A stretch of 64,000 nt of DNA from Pristiophorus japonicus. Taxonomy: Eukaryota. The notes beneath the pieces were generated by a model. That model made no database searches, had not been told where the DNA came from, and saw only the letters and a list, made by a program, of their open reading frames with translations. The stretch lies in contig NC_091978.1 in assembly GCF_044704955.1 (NCBI RefSeq), forward strand, positions 40,424,001-40,488,000. The letters are read 5' to 3'. This document shows, in pieces, positions 1 through 63,970 of this stretch. Positions within the stretch are counted from its first letter, which is position 1. Every line of letters begins with the position of its first letter. The translations under genes were made by a program, and so were the position numbers.

Positions 1-300
1 TGCTTTTAATTTAGTTAGTATAGTCCCATCACTAACATTACACAGATGCTAATTTGGGATTCCAAAATGACTACTAATTATTTGCTGTAATTACCTGCCA
101 TTATTGGCTGTGTGAGTGATTTAACCATGGATAATGTTTTGAAATTTTTAGAATAATTTATTTTCTATCTGATATTTTTTTTTAAATTAATTTTTGGCTC
201 TTGCAGGGGTCATGTTACTAATTTTGAATTTTTTCTTTGATGTCTCCAGTGAGTAACGAATGTGCACAAGTTCCCCTCCTCTTAATTCTCCATTAACAGT

Positions 301-1338: not shown

Positions 1339-2101
1339 CAAGGCAGATTATTATCTGAATGGTGACAGATTATTAAAAGGGGCGGTGCAACGAGACCTGG
1401 GTGTCATGGTACATCAGTCATTGAAGGTAGGCATGCAGGTACAGCAGGCAGTAAAGAAAGCTAATGACATGCTGGCCTTCATAGTGAGGGGATTTGAGTA
1501 TAGGAGCAGGGCGGTCTTGCTGCAGCTGTACAGGTCTTTGGTGAGACCACATCTTGAGTATTGTATTCAGTTTTGGTCTCCTAACCTGAGGAAGGACATT
1601 CTTGCTATTGAGGGAGTTCAGCGAAGGTTCACCAGACTGATTCCCGGGATGGCAGGACTGACGTATGAAGAAAGGCTGGATCGACTCGGCTTATATTCAC
1701 TGGAATTTAGAAGAATGAGAGGAGATCTCATAGAAACATATAAAATTCTGACCGGATTGGACAGGTTAAATACAGGAATAATGTTCCCGGTGTTGGGAAA
1801 GTCTAGAACCCGGGGTCACTGTCTAAGGATAAGGGATAAGCCATTTAGGATCGAGATGAGGAGAAACTTCTTCACAGAGAATTGTGAACCTGTGGAATTC
1901 TCTACCAGAGAAAGTTGTTGTGGCCAGTTCATTAGATATATTCAAAGGGGAGTTAGATGTGGCCCTTATGGCTAAAGGGATCAAGAGGTATGGAGAGAAA
2001 GCAGGAATGGGGTACTGAAATTGCATGATCATATTGAATGGTGGTGCAGGCTCGAAGGGCCGAGTGGCCTACTCCCGCACCTATTTTCTATGTTTTTATG
2101 T
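1339..2101 (+). mobile_element. 5'-truncated CR1 LINE, family A ((TTTCTATG)n tail)
   Basis: ORF2 C-terminal motifs VRPHLEYC, RRMRGDLIE and RTRGH, followed by the 3'UTR and a CTATTTTCTATG tail. Confidence 0.9.
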
Positions 2102-55020: not shown

Positions 55021-55129
55021 ACATGCACGGAGACACTTTAGTCAAGCTGAAGGAGGACAGCTGGATGAGGTGCGACAAGTAATGGGTATGCTGGCTTTTC
55101 CCTCAGATACTCATATTTCACCTTATAAG
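55021..55129 (+). CDS. MAEA: MAEA internal coding exon (109 nt; macrophage erythroblast attacher, CTLH/GID E3 ligase subunit, CRA domain region)
   Basis: Polypyrimidine tract with TTCAG acceptor and AAG|GTAGGA donor. Translates (R)[36 protein letters not shown], recognisable as vertebrate MAEA. Confidence 0.95.
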
Positions 55130-55434
55130 GTAGGAATTGATTTGTTTATTTCCTTATTATTATAGTCTTTGTGAGAAACATTTAAACATCAAATAAATTA
55201 TGGATTAGAGAATCTGCGTTTTAAAATGATAGGATATCAGAAATGTGCATGTTGCCCTTAATGTGTGTAATAAATATGAATTTATTCCAAGCGGATTTAC
55301 AATCCACGAAAAATTACCCTAAAACCTTGATCTGCTCTGAGCCCCATTTACCATGGTGGGATACAGCTTGGCCATCAGGGCATGCAATAACTCTGGGAGC
55401 GAAAAACTGAGATCATACTGTAGGCCACTCTTGT

Positions 55435-56390
55435 ATAGAATAGTCCAGCATAGAAGGAAGCCATTCAGCCCATCGAGTCTGTGCCGGCTCTTTCAAAGAG
55501 CAATCCAGTTAGTCCCACTCCCCCACTCTTCTCAAATATACTTGCAATTTTTTCATCTTCGAGTGTCTATCCAATTCCCATTTGAAGGCTACTATTTAAT
55601 CTGTATCCATCACCCTATCAGGCAGTGTATTCCAAATCCTAGCCACTCGCTGCATAAAAAAGTTTTTCCTCAAGGTTCACGAGATTGATCCCTGGGATAA
55701 GAGTTGACCTATGAGGAGAGATTGAGCAGATTGGGACGATATTGTCTGGAGTTTAGAAGAGTGACGGGGAATCTCATTGCATCATATAAGATTCGGAGGG
55801 AGATTGGCAGGGGAGATGCTGAGCGGTTGTTTTCCCAGCTGGAGAGTCTAGAACTAGGAGGCATCGTCTCAGGATAAGGGGTCGGCCATTTAAGACTGAG
55901 ATGAGGAGGAATTTCTTCACTCAGGGTTGTGAACTTTTGAAATTCTCTACTCCAAAGGGGTGTGGAAGCTGAGTCATTGACCATATTCAAGGCCGAGTTA
56001 GATAGATTTTTGGACTCGAGGGGAATCAAGGGATATGGAGATCGGGTGGAAAAGTGGAGTTAAGGTTGACGATTCGCCATGATACTGAATTGCGGAGCAG
56101 GCTCATTATTATGTTCTCATATCCCCTCTGGCTTTTTTTGCCAATCACCTTAAATCTGTGCCCTCTAATTATCAGCCATTAGAAACATTTTCTCTTTATT
56201 TACTCTATCTTAAACCCTTCATGATTTTAAACACCTCTATCAAATCTCCTCTTAGCCGCCTTTGCTGTAAGGAGAACAAACCCAGCTTCTCCAGTCTATC
56301 CACACAACAGTAATGCCTCAACCCTGGAACCATTTTCGTCAGTCTTTTCTGTACCCTCTCCAAAGCCTTCATGTCCTTCCTAAAATGTGG
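55435..56390. mobile_element. CR1 3' fragment (-) interrupted by another CR1 3' fragment (+, ~55675-56120)
   Basis: The minus copy breaks at AAAAAGTTTTTCCTCA and resumes at ATCCCCTCTGG. The plus copy has LEFRR, SRTR and EMRRNFF. Confidence 0.75.
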
Positions 56391-56617
56391 CAGAAACTAC
56401 GGTGTGACAATGGTAATCAGAGCACATTACTGAGCTCTTGTCTTCACTGAGAAAGGGTATGTGGTGCTTGCAACCGAAATATTCTTTATTTTCTTGGGAT
56501 TGATCTTCCGTATTGTCTACTTTCTTGTACAAGTGCATTCATTATGAAAGACCAGGTCCAAAATTAGAGTTACACTGTAGTTTTTCTGACACTAGCTTAC
56601 TCGTAATTCCTTGCTCT

Positions 56618-56864
56618 TGTCATGTATCCTACTGTCATTGTAATCCATGCATAAACTAACCTAAGTTGTACACCGCGAGAACACTGACCACTAGGTGGTG
56701 AACTTGTGGGAGACAGTCCTAACCTGGACCTTCAGGTATAAAAGGGGAAGCTGCACCCATCTTCTCCACTTCAGTGCTGGCTAATAAAGGACTGGTCACA
56801 GAGTGACCACCTCTCTCTAGTATGGGCCTCGTGTGCATTTGTTCTGTATAGTAAGGACATATCA
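56618..56864 (+). repeat. 5' LTR (247 bp)
   Basis: Direct repeat of 61113-61358, with TATAAAA and AATAAA. Confidence 0.95.
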
Positions 56865-56865
56865 T

Positions 56866-56901
56866 TGGCGACGAGAAACTGGGATTTAAACCATGCGAGC
56901 A
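56866..56901 (+). promoter_or_regulatory. Primer binding site, tRNA-Ser(GCU)-like
   Basis: TGGCGACGAG lies 1 nt after the LTR and is complementary to the tRNA 3' end ...CUCGUCGCCA. Confidence 0.75.
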
Positions 56902-59900
56902 TGGCCACGAGCAGCACAGACGACAGGTACTGTATTGATGATTGGGACGATTTTATTGAGAGACTACGGCAAAGTTTCGTCACTAAAGAATAGCTGGGAC
57001 AGGATTCGGCCGATAAATGCAGGGCTCATCTCTGATGGTTTGTGGATCCAGGCCGTACTCCCTGATGAAGGACCTTCTAGCGCCAGAGAAGCCGGTGGAC
57101 AAGACTTTGCCAGAGCTCAGTAAGTTGATCGGGGAACACTTTAAGCCGGCGAGCAGCAGCACATGGCGAGACACCGGTTTTACACGCACCGGCGGTGAGA
57201 AGGGCAAAGCGTTCCAGACTTTGTGGCAAACCTCCGGCGACTGGCAAGCCTATGTAAGTTCCTAGATGCATGCAGAGCGGAGATGCTGCGAGACTTTATT
57301 ATTGAGGGCATCGGGCACACTGGGGTTTTCAGGAAACTGATTGAGACCAAAGACTTGACCCTGGAAACGGTGGCTTTGATGGCCCAGACATTTATCTCAG
57401 GGGAGGAAGAGACCAGAATGATGTTTGACAAAAATCTTGGTTTAAATGCAGCAAATGGACAGGGAGTCAACATTGTTAACGCGGCACACAGTTCTCCACG
57501 CAGACAGAGGCAATTGGACATACCCGAGCATGTAGTCGAACCCAAAGGGGGAATTCAACAGAGACAATGGCTAGCTGAATGGCGATTCATGCCATCGCAA
57601 GGGACAATGCGGCCAGCAATGGGGCCATCAACACCTGTCAATGGTGTGTTTTAAGGACAGTTACAAAGACAGTCGGAGACGATCGACTGGTAATGGACCT
57701 TTTGTTTCCAACAACGGCTCATGTTGGAGGTGTGGAGGCAAACACATAACCAGAGCTTGCAGATATCAGCAATATACCTGCAGAAACTGCAACGTCAGCA
57801 GTCACTTGGCGCATGTGTGCAGGAAGCCTGCAGCCAGGTTGATGTACGAGGAGGACGGGCCCGATGTAAGCCCTACAAGGCCAAATGGACACTGGGGGAA
57901 ATCGCTGGAAGCTGAAGTTCAGAGAGTTCATGTGGAGCACATATACAGTTCATACGCCAGGACGCCACCGATAATGATGATCGTGCTCCTCAATGGCATC
58001 CCAGTATCGATGGAGCTAGACACGGGGGCCAGCCAGTCCCTGATCAGTATCAAACAGTTCGACAAGTTGTGGGCGTCCAAGGCCGGGAGGCCAAAATTAT
58101 TGCCGATTGACGCACAGCTACGGACATATACAAAGGAGATCATTCCGGTGCTAGGCAGCGCCACTGTAGTCATGACCCACAAAGATTCGGAGAACAGGTT
58201 GCCACTCTGGATTGTCCCAGGGGACGGTCCCGCACTGCTGGGGAGGAGTTGACTTGCTGTCATGAACTGGAAATGGGACGATATCAATGCAATTTCTTCT
58301 GTGGAGCGAGTATCATGCTCACAGGTCCTGGACAAATTTGACTCACTCTTTCAACCTGGCATTGGCTTTTTCATGGGGACCAAGGTAGTGATTCACATAA
58401 ACCCGGATGCTAGACCAGTACACCACAAGGCCAGAGCGGTGCCGTACGTGATGCGGGAAAAGATAGAAGGCGAATTGGACTGTCTGCTGAGGGAAGGCAT
58501 CATCTCGCCAGTCGAATTCAGTGACTGGTCAAGCCCGATTGTGCTGGTGCACAAGACGGATGGGTCGGTCAGGATATGTGGCGATTACAAGGCCACCATC
58601 AATCAGGTGTCACTCCAAGACCAGTACCCGCTACCGGGAGCGGAGGACCTTTTTGCAACGCTATCCGGTGGCAAACCTTTTTCAAAATTGAACCTGACCT
58701 CCGCTTACAGGACCCAGGAGCTGGCGAGTGAGTCAAAGAAGCTGACCACCATCACAACACACAAGGGGTTGTTTGACTACAACAGATGTCCATTCGGGAT
58801 TCGCTCGGCCGTCGCGATCTTTCAACGAAACATGGAAAGTCTCCTCAAGTCGATTCCAGGGACGGTGGTTTTTCAAGACGACATCCTCATCACGGGTTGC
58901 GATACTGAAGAACACCTCCCCAACCTGGAGGAGGTGCTACGCAGACTGGACCGGGTAGGTCTGCGACTGAAAAAGGCGAAGTGCGTCTTCCTAGCTCCAG
59001 AGGTAGAATTCCTGGGGATGAGGGTAGCAGCAGACAGGATCAGACCTCCTGCGTCCAAAACGGAAGTGATCCAGAGAGCACCCAGACCCCGTAACACGAC
59101 GGAGCTGCGTTCATTCCTGGGGCTCCTGAACTATTTTGGTAACTTTCTTCCCAAATTGAGCACGCTGTTAGAGCCGCTACATGTGCTCCTACACAAAGGT
59201 CGCGAATGGGTCTGGGGGGACAGCCAGGAAAGGGCTTTTGACAGAGCATACAATTTGTTATGCTCCAACAATCTGTTAATTCTATATGACCCATGTAAGA
59301 AACTTGTTTTAACGTGCGATGCTTCGTCCTATGGTGTCGGGTGTGTGTTGCAGCATGTCAATGCCATAGGCCAGTTACAGCCGGTAGCTTATGCCTCCAG
59401 AAGTCTGTCCCAGGCAGAAAGAGGGGCTATGGGATGGTAGAAAAGGAAACGCTTGCATGTGTCTATGCAGTAAAAGAAAATGCATCAGTACCTGTTTGAC
59501 AGGAAATTTGAGCTGGAGACAGATTACAAACCCCTAACGTCTCTTTTGGCTGACAACAAGGCCATAAATGCAAATGCGTCGGCCCGCATACAGAGGTGGG
59601 CGCTCATGTTAGCCGCCTATTACTAGACAATTCGGCACTGACCGGGCACCAAAAACTGCGCCGATGCACTCAGCAGGCTCCCACTAGCCAACAATGAGGG
59701 GGCAACCGAGCATACTGCTGAGATGGTCATGGCTGTTGAAGCTTTCGAAAGCGAAACCCGTGACAGCCCATCAGATCAAAGTCTGGACAGATAGAGACCC
59801 GCTACTACCTTTAGTCTAGAAATGTGTCCTGAATGAGGACTAGGCAGCCACATACGGGGCATGCCTTGAGGAATTTAAACCATTTCACAGGCGCAAGGAT

Positions 59901-61084
59901 GAACACTCGATTCAGGCCGATTGCCTAATATGGGGAAACCGAGTAGTCATGCCCCAGATGGGCAGAGAGGCGTTCATCTGAGAACTCCACAATGAGCACC
60001 TGGGCATTGTCTTGATGAAGGCAATTGCCAGGTCACACGTTTGGTGGCCAGGGATAGATGCAGACCTGGAACTTTGTGTTTGCAGGTGCAACACATGTGT
60101 CCAGCTGGGCAATGCGCCCAGGGAAGCCCCCCTTAGCCCCTGGTCCTGGCCCGCCCAGCCATGGTCACGCATCCATGTGGACTACGCAGGTTCTTTCATG
60201 GGAAAAATGTTTTTGGTTGTCGTAGACGCCTACTCCAAATGGATCGAGTGTGATATTTTAAATTCAAGCACATCCTTTGCCACGTGAGAAAGTCTATGGG
60301 CAATGTTCGCCACCAATGGTCTACCGACGTCTTGGTCAGTGACAATGGCCCGTGCTTTACAAGCATTGAATTCCAGGACTTCATGGCAGGAAATGGTATC
60401 AACCATGTCAGAACGGCACCATTCAAGCCGGCCTCAAACGGCCAGGCGGAATGAGCAGTGCAGATAATCAAACTGGATGCTCAGAATCCAAGGGAGTTCC
60501 CTACAAAGCCGCTTATCACACCTCCTGTTGGCCAATAGATCCCGACCACACTCGCTCACAGCGGTTCCACCCGCAGAGCTGCTAATGAAAAGGACACAAA
60601 AAACAGGTTATCCTTTGTACACCCCACCATGAAAGAAATTGTTGAGAGCAGGCGCTGGTCACAATGTGACTACCATGACGGGAATGCGAGGGCACGATGT
60701 ATTGATGTCAATGACCCTGTCTTTGTCCTCAACCGGGCTGCAGGGCCCAAATGGCTCACAAGCACTGTGATTTCCAAAGAGGGGAATAGGATTCTGGTAG
60801 TTAAACTTACCAATGGATAAATCTGCCGCAAACATGTGGATCAAACAAAAAGGAGGTTCAGCAACCCCATAGAAGAAGCAGAGGAAGAACACGATGTAGA
60901 GTTCACTCCACCACAGGTGACCGAACACCGGTACCAAGTGGAGGAGAGCCCAGTCACTGTGGGCAGTCCGGACAGGCCTGAGGCACCGCAAACAGCAGAC
61001 ACTCAGACCAGCACCCAACAACCGGAGCCCCAACTCAGGCGCTGTACAAGGGAGCGTAAACCACCAGAGAGACTTAACCTGTGA
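56901..61084 (+). pseudogene. Gypsy gag-pol, disrupted by stops and frameshifts
   Basis: ORF pieces at 57223-57654, 57641-58252, 58262-59440, 60012-60287 and 60629-61084. Confidence 0.9.
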
Positions 61085-61112
61085 TCCTAATAAGACTTTG
61101 CGGGGGAGGTGA

Positions 61113-61358
61113 TGTCATGTATTCTACTGTCATTGTAATCCATGTATAAACTGACCTAAGTTGTACACCGTGAGAACACTGACCACTAAATGGTGAACTT
61201 GTGGGAGACACTCCTAACCTGGACTTTCAGGTATAAAAGGGGAAGCTCCACTCATCTTCTCCACTTCAGTGCTGGCTTAATAAAGGACTGGCCACAGAGT
61301 GACCTTCTCTCTAGTATGGGCCTCGTGTGCATTTGTACTGTGTAGTAAGGACATATCA
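61113..61358 (+). repeat. 3' LTR (246 bp)
   Basis: Preceded by the PPT at 61102-61112 and followed by TSD GCTCT at 61359-61363. Confidence 0.95.
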
Positions 61359-61537
61359 GCTCTCCTGATAGTCCACCCCAAATCAACTCTACCTTGCCCC
61401 CTCCATCTTTACTTTCAAAAGATACTTAAATAAAACTCTCTTTAACCATGCTGTCATCATCTCCTACTTTCTGTTCCCCTTTTTTTCCCTTGCTGCTTGC
61501 GATCTACATTTTACAACTGTTCTGTGGAGCACTCTGA

Positions 61538-62502
61538 CAAAAGCAAAATACTACGAATGCTGGAAATCTGAAATAAAAACCGAAAATGCTGGAAATACTC
61601 AGCAGTCCAGGAGAGAAACAGTTAACGTTTCAGGTCGATGACCTGTCGTCAGAACTGGAACAAGTTAGAGATGCATCAGGTTTTAAGCAAGTACAGAGGC
61701 AGGGAAAGGGAGGAGGGGAGGGAAGAACGAAAGAGAAGGTTTATGATGGTGTGGAAGGCAGGAGAGCTTAAATAACAAAAGGGATGATGGTGCAAAGCAA
61801 AAGGAGATGGTAATGGGTTAAGTAAAGAAACAAAAGATGGGTCTAGAGGAGGTGTAAATGGGAATAGCAGAATCAACAGCTGCCGTGCGAAAAAATGGGG
61901 GCAGATGTTATGATCTTGGAAATGTTGAATTTGATGTTGCATCCCGTAGGCTGTAAAGTGCCTCATCAGAAGATGAGGCGCTGTTCCTCGAACTTACATT
62001 GAGCTTCATTGGAACAGTGCAGGAAATACAGAAAGATCAAAGTGGGGTGGAACGGAGAATTAAAGTGACAGGTGGCTGGAAGCTCGGTCACGCTTGCAGA
62101 CTGAATGGCGGCGTTCCGCAAAGTTATCACCCAATCTGCATTTGGTCTCCCCAATATAGAGAAGACCACATTGTGAGCAGCGGATACAGTATACTAAATT
62201 GAAAGAAATCCTAGTAAATCACTGTCTCACCTGGAAGGAGTGTTTGGGGCCCTGGATGGTGGGAAGGGAGGAGGTAAAAGGGAAGGTGTTGCATCTCCTG
62301 CGCTTGCGTTGGGAGGGGAAAGATTGTTGAGGATGATTGAGGAATTACTGGGGTGTTCAGCCCTGAACTCATTGAATGGTGGTGCAGGCTCGAAGGGCCG
62401 AATGGCCTACTCCTGCTCCTATTTTCTATGTTTCTATGTTGCGGAGGGACGGACCGGTCCCTTCGGAATACTGAAAGAGGAGGGGAGGGGAAGATGTGTT
62501 TT
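61538..62502 (-). mobile_element. Penelope-like element 3' fragment (GIY-YIG endonuclease and pLTR)
   Basis: Minus strand reads NLVYCIRCSQCGLLYIGETKCRLG (GIY-YIG), plus PSPPLSVFRRDRS and EEQRLIF. A CR1 family A tail (+) is embedded at about 62370-62440. Confidence 0.85.
61619..61657 (-). ncRNA. Minimal type I hammerhead ribozyme motif
   Basis: Minus strand reads CAGTT-CTGACGA-C-AGGTC-ATC-GACCT-GAAACGTT-AACTG: stem I CAGUU/AACUG, core CUGANGA and GAAA, stem II AGGUC/GACCU, loopless palindromic stem III ACGU, GUU cleavage triplet. Confidence 0.8.
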
Positions 62503-62621
62503 TCAAAGCAGTCATTGAGTTGAGTCGTTCTCATTTTTGCTTCGAATGCCCTCAAACTGCAGAAGTTTGGGAGCAGGTTTTATTTTAATACAAGAGTCAA
62601 ATCCTTCTGTTTCCATTGCAG

Positions 62622-62755
62622 GATCTTTTGGACCCAGCTCGATGGAAGATGCTTATTCAGCAGTTCAGATATGACAACTACAGACTTCACCAACTTGGAA
62701 ACAGCTCTGTCTTCACTATAACACTCCAAGCAGGACTGTCAGCGATAAAAACACC
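62622..62755 (+). CDS. MAEA: MAEA next coding exon (134 nt)
   Basis: TTCCATTGCAG acceptor, in frame with the previous exon: [44 protein letters not shown](P). Confidence 0.95.
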
Positions 62756-62765
62756 GTATCCTTTT
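62756..62765 (+). promoter_or_regulatory. U12-type 5' splice site
   Basis: GTATCCTTTT matches the RTATCCTTT minor-intron donor consensus exactly where MAEA similarity ends. Confidence 0.88.
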
Positions 62766-62931
62766 ACAAGTTGAAATGATAATCCTTTCAAGTCTCAGTA
62801 TCAGTGTCTAAAATTGTCTAGTTACAATAAAAGTTTAGTTGCTTTCAGAAACATCTAACCTTACAGATCTTAGATTGCCATAAGTATCCAACTTTTAAAA
62901 TCTTCGCTTCTGCATGGTTCTATGGGATATT

Positions 62932-63705
62932 GGGGCAGAAATCCTGGCCTCCCCGGGTCCATAACGACATTTCTAAGGACCCGGGAAGGCATCACAAAAG
63001 CCGGTTTTCAACGTGTAATGCGCATGCGCTGAAAACCGGCTTTTCTGATCTGTCAAGCTGGAGCTTGACAGATCGTCGACATCTCGGGAGCGAGGACATT
63101 TGCAAGGACAAGATTGCGGTATTTGTCCATATCTTGCCCAGCAAATGTTCTCAAAATTTGTGCCTGATAAAAGCAGCCGCATAGCCTACGTTTACAGGCG
63201 TAAGAGTCTTAAAACACACAAAAACATTGTAAAATAAAATTTTAAAAGCACATTTTATTGTTTAAAAATCATCCCCACTCTGCTAAGTTTATTTTAAACC
63301 ATAATAATAATAATAAAGCTTTTGAAAAAAAAAATTGGAAAAATATATATTTTTAAAATTCATAAATAACTAATTTAAATTAATAAAAATATGTTGTGCA
63401 TTTTATTTATATTTTATTATTGGTTATGTGTGTTTTGTGGGCTGTTTCTCATTCATAATAATGGGAACTCCAACTTACGGAGTTTCCATTATTATGAATG
63501 AGAATATACTATACCAGATTGGCTGCCCAGAGCCATGTGGCTCAAGGCCTGCGCACGTCCTGACGTGCATGGACTGCGATGCGCAGTCAGGGGAAGCCTC
63601 AGGACCGGGATCTCGCGTGGGCGCATCTGCTTCAGGTAGGTGCGTTGCTTTTTTCTAGAATCCAGTCGAATGCCTGTGGGAAGGAGAAACCGGGATTTCT
63701 GGGCC
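62932..63705. mobile_element. Non-autonomous TIR element (Harbinger-like), 774 bp
   Basis: TIRs GGGGCAGAAATCCTGG / GGCCCAGAAATCCCGG (13/16 identical). 3-bp TSD ATT at 62929-62931 and 63706-63708. Confidence 0.85.
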
Positions 63706-63970
63706 ATTGCTTAAAATTCCAAGAATACTAAGAATATTGAGATAGTGGAATTCCCAATTAGAGGATTCCCTGAACAACAACAGGCAGACCAATAATTAAT
63801 TAATGGAGCAGTGAATGTGGAGGGGTGAGGCATGTGTCACAGTGTTGGGGTGAGGCCCAAGGGGTTATGGTGGTTAAAAGTCGAGGGCCACAATTTATCT
63901 AGCACAAGAACAAGGTGGTAGGCTTGAGGCCAAATATTAAATATTAAGGCAAACATGGTGCTGGAGCTAA

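Follow-up and report, generated by a model that had tools for sequence, protein, structure and literature searches.

We conclude that the 39-nt hammerhead motif in an intron of MAEA is very probably a neutrally decaying, inactive relic: a minimal hammerhead in the 3′ tail of a Penelope-like element (PLE) family present in high copy, carried by a 5′-truncated insertion. The survival of the motif needs no function. A first-pass annotation of the window, by which we mean the whole 64-kb stretch of DNA that was analyzed, had called the motif a minimal type I hammerhead of a PLE, and this identification is right; the motif is sense to the element and antisense to MAEA. The same annotation argued that the core has outlasted the decay of the adjacent ORF and may therefore still act. 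We find no support for this argument: among the 40 of 173 family differences listed, motif and flank show equal divergence, and the lone substitution in the motif is predicted to lock a catalytic residue, G12, into stem II. The motif and the nucleotide in question are as follows.

61619..61657, minus strand: minimal type I hammerhead motif, from its sequence, standard numbering and a shuffle test of chance occurrence
61645, minus strand: extra nucleotide between A9 and 10.1, a C where the family has A; predicted to pair with G12 at 61631

The exact 39-mer described previously, with its CUGACGA, GAAA and GUH segments, occupies 61657-61619 of the minus strand. Stem I (61657-61653 / 61623-61619, 5 bp) leads into C3-A9, the CUGACGA segment, at 61652-61646, which is followed by the extra C and by stem II (61644-61640 / 61636-61632, 5 bp, 3-nt loop). 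The GAAA segment is present, with G12-A14 at 61631-61629, and the loopless palindromic stem III that had been reported is indeed found at 61628-61625, where the self-complementary ACGU makes up a helix III without a loop. H17 is the U at 61624, which gives a GUU triplet, and cleavage is predicted between 61624 and 61623, the same point as that annotated earlier. The motif contains the core CUGANGA ... GAAA ... UH of the minimal hammerheads (min-HHRs) of PLEs in a type I layout, with a helix I of 5 bp (4-5 bp in the class) and a helix II of 5 bp. The 12-13 nucleotides of the core are all preserved, as are both stems. The 10.1-11.1 pair is A-U and not the G-C toward which the class tends as a highly conserved feature; since A-U at this position is absent from the 40 of 173 family differences listed, it is probably a trait of the family.

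A hammerhead descriptor matched 61657-61619 and no other site on either strand of the 64-kb window. In 100 dinucleotide shuffles, the loose form of the descriptor was matched 0.11 times per shuffle and the strict form (stem II of at least 4 and stem I of at least 5) was never matched. No look-alike of the motif within 16 mismatches occurs elsewhere in the window. Rfam gave no hammerhead match at the gathering score in the whole window, and at E<=10 on 61300-62000 it returned three unrelated weak matches and no hammerhead.

The element that carries the motif consists of the following parts, one of which is foreign to it.

62441..62501, minus strand: 5′-most surviving piece of the Penelope ORF (HIFPSPPLSVFRRDRS), from tblastn with the protein P0121 (72% over 18 aa, E=0.007)
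62354..62440, plus strand: 87-nt fragment of a different repeat, nested within the Penelope ORF, from self-BLAST, with PLE homology on both sides
61897..62323, minus strand: broken C-terminal ORF with a linker zinc-finger remnant and a GIY-YIG endonuclease (VYC-IRCSQC-GLLYIG), from Pfam, relatives and tblastn
61658..61905, minus strand: non-coding 3′ region (part of the pseudo-LTR) from the end of the endonuclease homology to the motif, from tblastn and family contigs; the boundary is uncertain near 61900-61925
61537..61618, minus strand: 3′ tail of the Penelope element, from loose ends with unrelated flanks at 61537-61539

The C-terminal part of the ORF extends from 62501 to about 61900 on the same strand as the motif, which is separated from the endonuclease homology, on its 3′ side, by about 250 nt and from the element end by 82 nt, and is in sense to the ORF. 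The earlier placement of the motif downstream of a GIY-YIG coding remnant is thereby confirmed. The ORF at 61897..62323 is disrupted by in-frame stops and by a frame change near 62090. Its GIY-YIG stretch, VYCIRCSQCGLLYIG, is C-terminal and has two cysteines between GIY and YIG, as in EN+ PLEs. This stretch is below the Pfam cut-off (E=0.023), and the GIY-YIG domains of its relatives pass or approach it. Five relatives are 63-75% identical, 303 representatives match, and three long relatives among the seven scanned (P0227, P0179 and P0209) show an RVT_1 match followed by a C-terminal GIY-YIG match.

At its 62441-62501 end the copy is 5′-truncated, so that the RT core, which EN+ PLEs have as a telomerase-like domain upstream in the same ORF, and the upstream pseudo-LTR are missing and the last ~190 codons remain, broken. 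The CX2-5CxxC linker that joins RT and endonuclease in the Neptune clade is complete in P0121, and one of its cysteines remains in this copy. The copy appears Neptune-like; with the RT core absent, this clade assignment draws on the linker instead of a tree. The loose ends of family contigs put the 3′ end of the element at 61537-61539, and its tail contains a 12-nt direct repeat (61556-61567 and 61585-61596). Self-BLAST of 61301-62520 found no second PLE piece in the 64-kb window. About 18 pieces similar to the nested repeat at 62354..62440, which we take to be a CR1 LINE / SINE tail, occur elsewhere in the window according to the same type of search.

The insertion resides in a 7,492-bp intron of MAEA (55130-62621), which is defined by two exons.

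55021..55129, plus strand: MAEA coding exon upstream of the host intron, from a CTLH match (E=6e-5) and tblastn
62622..62755, plus strand: MAEA coding exon downstream of the host intron, from a CTLH match (E=3e-8), protein matches and tblastn

The two exons match consecutive parts of MAEA in tblastn. With MAEA of Callorhinchus, Cetorhinus and Scyliorhinus the downstream exon shares 100% identity, and with that of other vertebrates 93-98%, among the best 120 of 231 matches, a pattern indicative of a cartilaginous fish. Both are on the plus strand and the motif, 964 nt before the intron acceptor, is on the minus strand, in agreement with the antisense location in a MAEA intron that had been noted previously. 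Hence, the sense pre-mRNA of MAEA cannot form the hammerhead. A tblastn search with three MAEA proteins found no third MAEA exon in the window, including the 55 kb of 1-55020, and the upstream intron may therefore exceed 55 kb; the region 1-55020 is rich in repeats. The intron that follows the downstream exon begins with GTATCCTTTT (62756-62765, plus strand), which we take to be a minor (U12-type) donor by its consensus. In PMC13135317, human MAEA appears among the genes with U12 introns.

The same intron contains another large repeat.

56618..61358, plus strand: LTR retrotransposon that is not part of the hammerhead element, from its LTRs and an RVT_1 match (E=3.5e-10)

Its LTRs (56618-56864 and 61113-61358) are 93.1% alike over 248 nt, and the same 5-bp sequence flanks the element on both sides. 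This retrotransposon, presumably of the Ty3/gypsy type, is full-length-looking but broken, and ends ~180 nt from the Penelope 3′ end in the opposite orientation. The interval between the two (61359-61536) may be the 3′ end of another LINE, which it resembles. Beyond the downstream exon, 62931-63706 holds a MITE-like element of about 775 nt; its terminal inverted repeats of 24 nt are imperfect, and several strong hairpins form inside it, among them one at 63446-63504 with 26-nt arms and one at 62991-63049 with 23-nt arms.

To compare the copy with its family, contigs were placed on 61500-62340 at a likeness of at least 80% for four of the 24 listed runs. Matching contigs numbered 44,898 (X1), 26,430 (X5) and 47,337 (X6) in runs from three studies and 2,102 in X19, which is possibly an RNA run. 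The contig numbers in X1, X5 and X6 point to a high-copy Penelope-like family, although contig depth does not equal copy number. None of the contigs listed in the four runs spans the locus itself, which is uninformative either way. Among the runs listed, none is on record as RNA, which carries no information on expression. Of the 173 family differences, the 40 listed were used; 31 of these 40 differ in at least 80% of X1 depth, and the other nine were left out.

Among the 40 of 173 differences listed, such sites make up 1/39 of the motif (2.6%), 9/330 of the non-coding flank (2.7%) and 21/405 of the ORF (5.2%). The divergence of motif and flank is the same on this partial table (Fisher p=1.0; P(<=1 in 39)=0.53), and the motif shows no excess conservation over the flank, with the caveat that the comparison is low-powered: it involves one event in 39 nt and a filter of at least 80% likeness, and the organisms are coded and may not be this species. 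The first-pass annotation had proposed that the motif be compared with the rest of the element, with equal divergence counting as one half of the case against a retained role, and on this partial table the outcome for the flank is equality. Given these values, we reject the argument that a core which outlives its ORF must be under selection. Furthermore, a 13-nt core would stay intact by chance in about 58% of cases at a flank rate of 4.1%, and a 12-site core in 28-37% of cases at 8-10% divergence.

The sole substitution in the motif is at the extra base, 61645, where this copy has C and the family has A in 98.7, 98.6, 99.4 and 99.5% of depth (X1, X5, X6 and X19, respectively). The extra C before stem II, listed earlier among the features of the motif, is present but turns out to be a private change. 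A second private change affects the edge of stem I.

61606..61619, minus strand: stretch just 3′ of stem I, 14 nt here and 30 nt in the family (16 nt shorter), from loose ends that each of the four runs shows at 61605 and 61620

The 16-nt loss includes 2 nt at the stem I edge, and it is the loss of these 2 nt that creates the fifth stem I pair. The loose ends at 61605/61620 imply that stem I of the family has 4 bp and that the fifth pair of this copy is a by-product. The two perfect 5-bp stems described earlier do exist, but the perfection of stem I results from a private deletion, and we reject its interpretation as a sign of upkeep. Within the region 61605-61675, the stretch that this copy has lost contains, in the loose-end consensus of the family, a 6-nt word complementary to one that lies upstream of the motif by about 15 nt, near 61668-61673. 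In intact copies this complementarity might extend stem I distally, or it could be due to chance.

Folding calculations, which leave out tertiary contacts and any help from protein, suggest what the A-to-C change would do. In the minimum-energy fold the extra C at 61645 pairs with G12, which adds -2.9 kcal/mol and has a probability of 0.997. G12 is unpaired with a probability of 0.003, and of 0.998 if the extra base is forced to be unpaired. Even then G5, G8 and U17 stay in a competing helix (unpaired 0.06, 0.02 and 0.07). The change is thus predicted to extend stem II to 6 bp, open the core and block the catalytic core. A private mutation with this predicted effect makes it likely that the copy is an inactive relic. 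The modelled active homodimer has an energy of -14.3 kcal/mol compared to -33.5 kcal/mol for the dimer ensemble, so that folding predicts against self-cleavage of a dimer of this copy. In the hammerhead of the viroid CChMVd, where the sequence context is different, an A10-to-C change of the extra base had "major detrimental effects" (PMC3705267, on De la Pena & Flores 2001).

According to the literature, the two motifs of an intact tandem element would pair through the ACGU palindrome and the core of each strand would cut the other strand after GUH. This cleavage, which would process the RNA of the element, is probably aided by the element's own protein. The copy in the MAEA intron has neither an upstream pseudo-LTR promoter nor a partner copy in the window. 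In the model, the geometry of the active dimer is nested, and each cut strand sits on the core of its partner. As the strand being cut in a mixed dimer would use the core of the partner, this strand could be cut despite the A-to-C change. The earlier suggestion of cleavage by pairing with other copies is therefore weakened in one respect, as the copy's own core is predicted to be blocked. In another respect it survives: in a mixed dimer, the core of an intact partner could still cleave the strand contributed by this copy.

This leads to an alternative explanation that we regard as unlikely: the copy cannot cut, but its rare minus-strand transcripts are now and then cut in trans by an intact core of the family via ACGU and a 4-bp stem I, without any benefit to the host. 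The dimer geometry agrees with it, and the substrate side of the motif (ACGU, U17 and the 3′ arm of stem I) is intact. The family is very abundant, and its contigs in the possibly-RNA run X19 indicate that partner RNA may exist. Cleavage of dimers is also on record for PLE hammerheads (PMC4209133; reviewed in PMC6765202). However, the two strands would be joined by only about 8 intermolecular pairs, the energy of the active homodimer is far above that of the dimer ensemble, and G5, G8 and U17 are paired in the competing fold even with the extra base free. Moreover, even tandem dimers are slow (PMC4209133), and we identified no source of antisense RNA. Broader still, and very improbable in our estimate, would be a genome-wide layer of repeat-guided RNA cutting, in which intact family RNAs together with the element protein cut host transcripts in trans (for example, antisense RNA through the MAEA intron) even where the local core is dead, using many dispersed palindromic half-hammerheads in cartilaginous-fish genomes.

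Domestication, in which the motif would be kept to regulate MAEA by ending or processing an antisense RNA, has a precedent in the intronic hammerheads of amniotes (RECK and others, PMC6155905), and the intact core and stems are compatible with it. Nevertheless, we consider it very improbable as well: among the family differences listed, the motif is no better conserved than its flank, it carries a private change where one is predicted to have an effect, 16 nt next to the cut site have been lost, and the antisense orientation means that it cannot cut the pre-mRNA. The least probable explanation, to which we give almost no credence, is that the motif resembles a hammerhead by chance and is not one by descent. 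The silence of Rfam would fit such a coincidence, but the strict descriptor found nothing in 100 shuffles and the position of the motif agrees with that published for PLEs (PMC4209133). A pattern scan gave no matches in viral contigs and two in metagenome contigs, L001 and L002, and Rfam found no hammerhead family in either contig. L002 belongs to an unrelated PLE with an open frame for the RT end and GIY-YIG (37% identical to P0121 over 246 aa). The same core (118-145, minus strand) is located downstream of this GIY-YIG ORF, about 160 nt after the stop, with a compensated stem II (G-C at 10.1-11.1); its stem I is not evident. The shuffles, the L002 parallel and the family contigs refute the coincidence in practice. 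The other contig, L001 (32 kb), has a hammerhead-like core with a 5-bp stem II at 1501-1529 (plus strand); it has no PLE protein match and was dropped as a PLE comparison.

Taken as a decaying relic, the copy matters little, since the RNA class to which it belongs, described in 2014, is represented by very many such copies. It does teach caution on two points. In a young high-copy repeat, a core that looks intact is to be expected by chance, and a feature that looks canonical, the extra base, is where this copy changed. PMC8557442 and PMC11167929 describe the role of PLE hammerheads as unclear, or as dispensable in vitro. Trans-cleavage between dispersed copies would bear on this role if shown in cells, and an intact, transcribed copy would be a better test case than the one in the MAEA intron.

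A literature search, with subscription papers and supplements outside its scope, found no report of a shark Penelope-like hammerhead, its one match being a review that uses "shark" solely in connection with how the motif got its name, and cartilaginous fish are not named in the main text of PMC4209133 through the start of its methods, supplements aside. Hammerhead retrozymes have been described in one cartilaginous fish in a 2026 preprint (10.64898/2026.07.22.740005). The same preprint gives about 43% of Xenopus copies as intronic, and hence the intronic location is ordinary. In the part of PMC1636495 that was consulted, no passage on GUU triplets was found.

Like the domesticated hammerheads of amniotes (RECK and others, PMC6155905), the motif is of type I and located in an intron of a host gene. 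However, the amniote hammerheads show conservation across species and are depicted with tertiary contacts, whereas the present motif is minimal, antisense to the gene, part of a recognizable retroelement and, among the differences listed, no more conserved than its flank. The Poseidon element PAc of Anolis (PMC11167929) also has a minimal hammerhead in the pseudo-LTR of a vertebrate PLE, but PAc is intact, tandem and assayed, whereas this copy is single, truncated and known from its sequence. The Anolis hammerhead needed protein, and insertion in vitro did not require the ribozyme; none of the RNA reads ended where it cuts (PMC11167929). Of an ORF like that of Neptune-type EN+ PLEs (Craig et al. 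2021, PMC8557442), this copy keeps no more than the last ~190 codons, broken and without the RT core.

The closest known system is the min-HHR of metazoan PLEs as defined by Cervera & De la Pena 2014, including the extra base and the palindrome (PMC4209133). Thousands of min-HHRs, mostly single motifs, exist per genome in coelacanth and Xenopus; single minimal motifs showed no cleavage and dimers showed low cleavage (PMC4209133). The present motif differs from this class in the A-U at 10.1-11.1 instead of the usual G-C, in its GUU triplet, in a helix II of 5 bp compared to 7-8 bp in the Schistosoma families, and in an extra base that, being C, is able to pair with G12. It shares with the class the type I layout with a helix I of 4-5 bp, a helix III without a loop, the palindromic 15.2-16.2 and a place in the terminal repeat that follows the GIY-YIG ORF. 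An extra base between 9 and 10.1, which is unpaired in the class, is present but predicted to be paired here. Like most of the class, it is a single motif in a truncated copy (PMC4209133).
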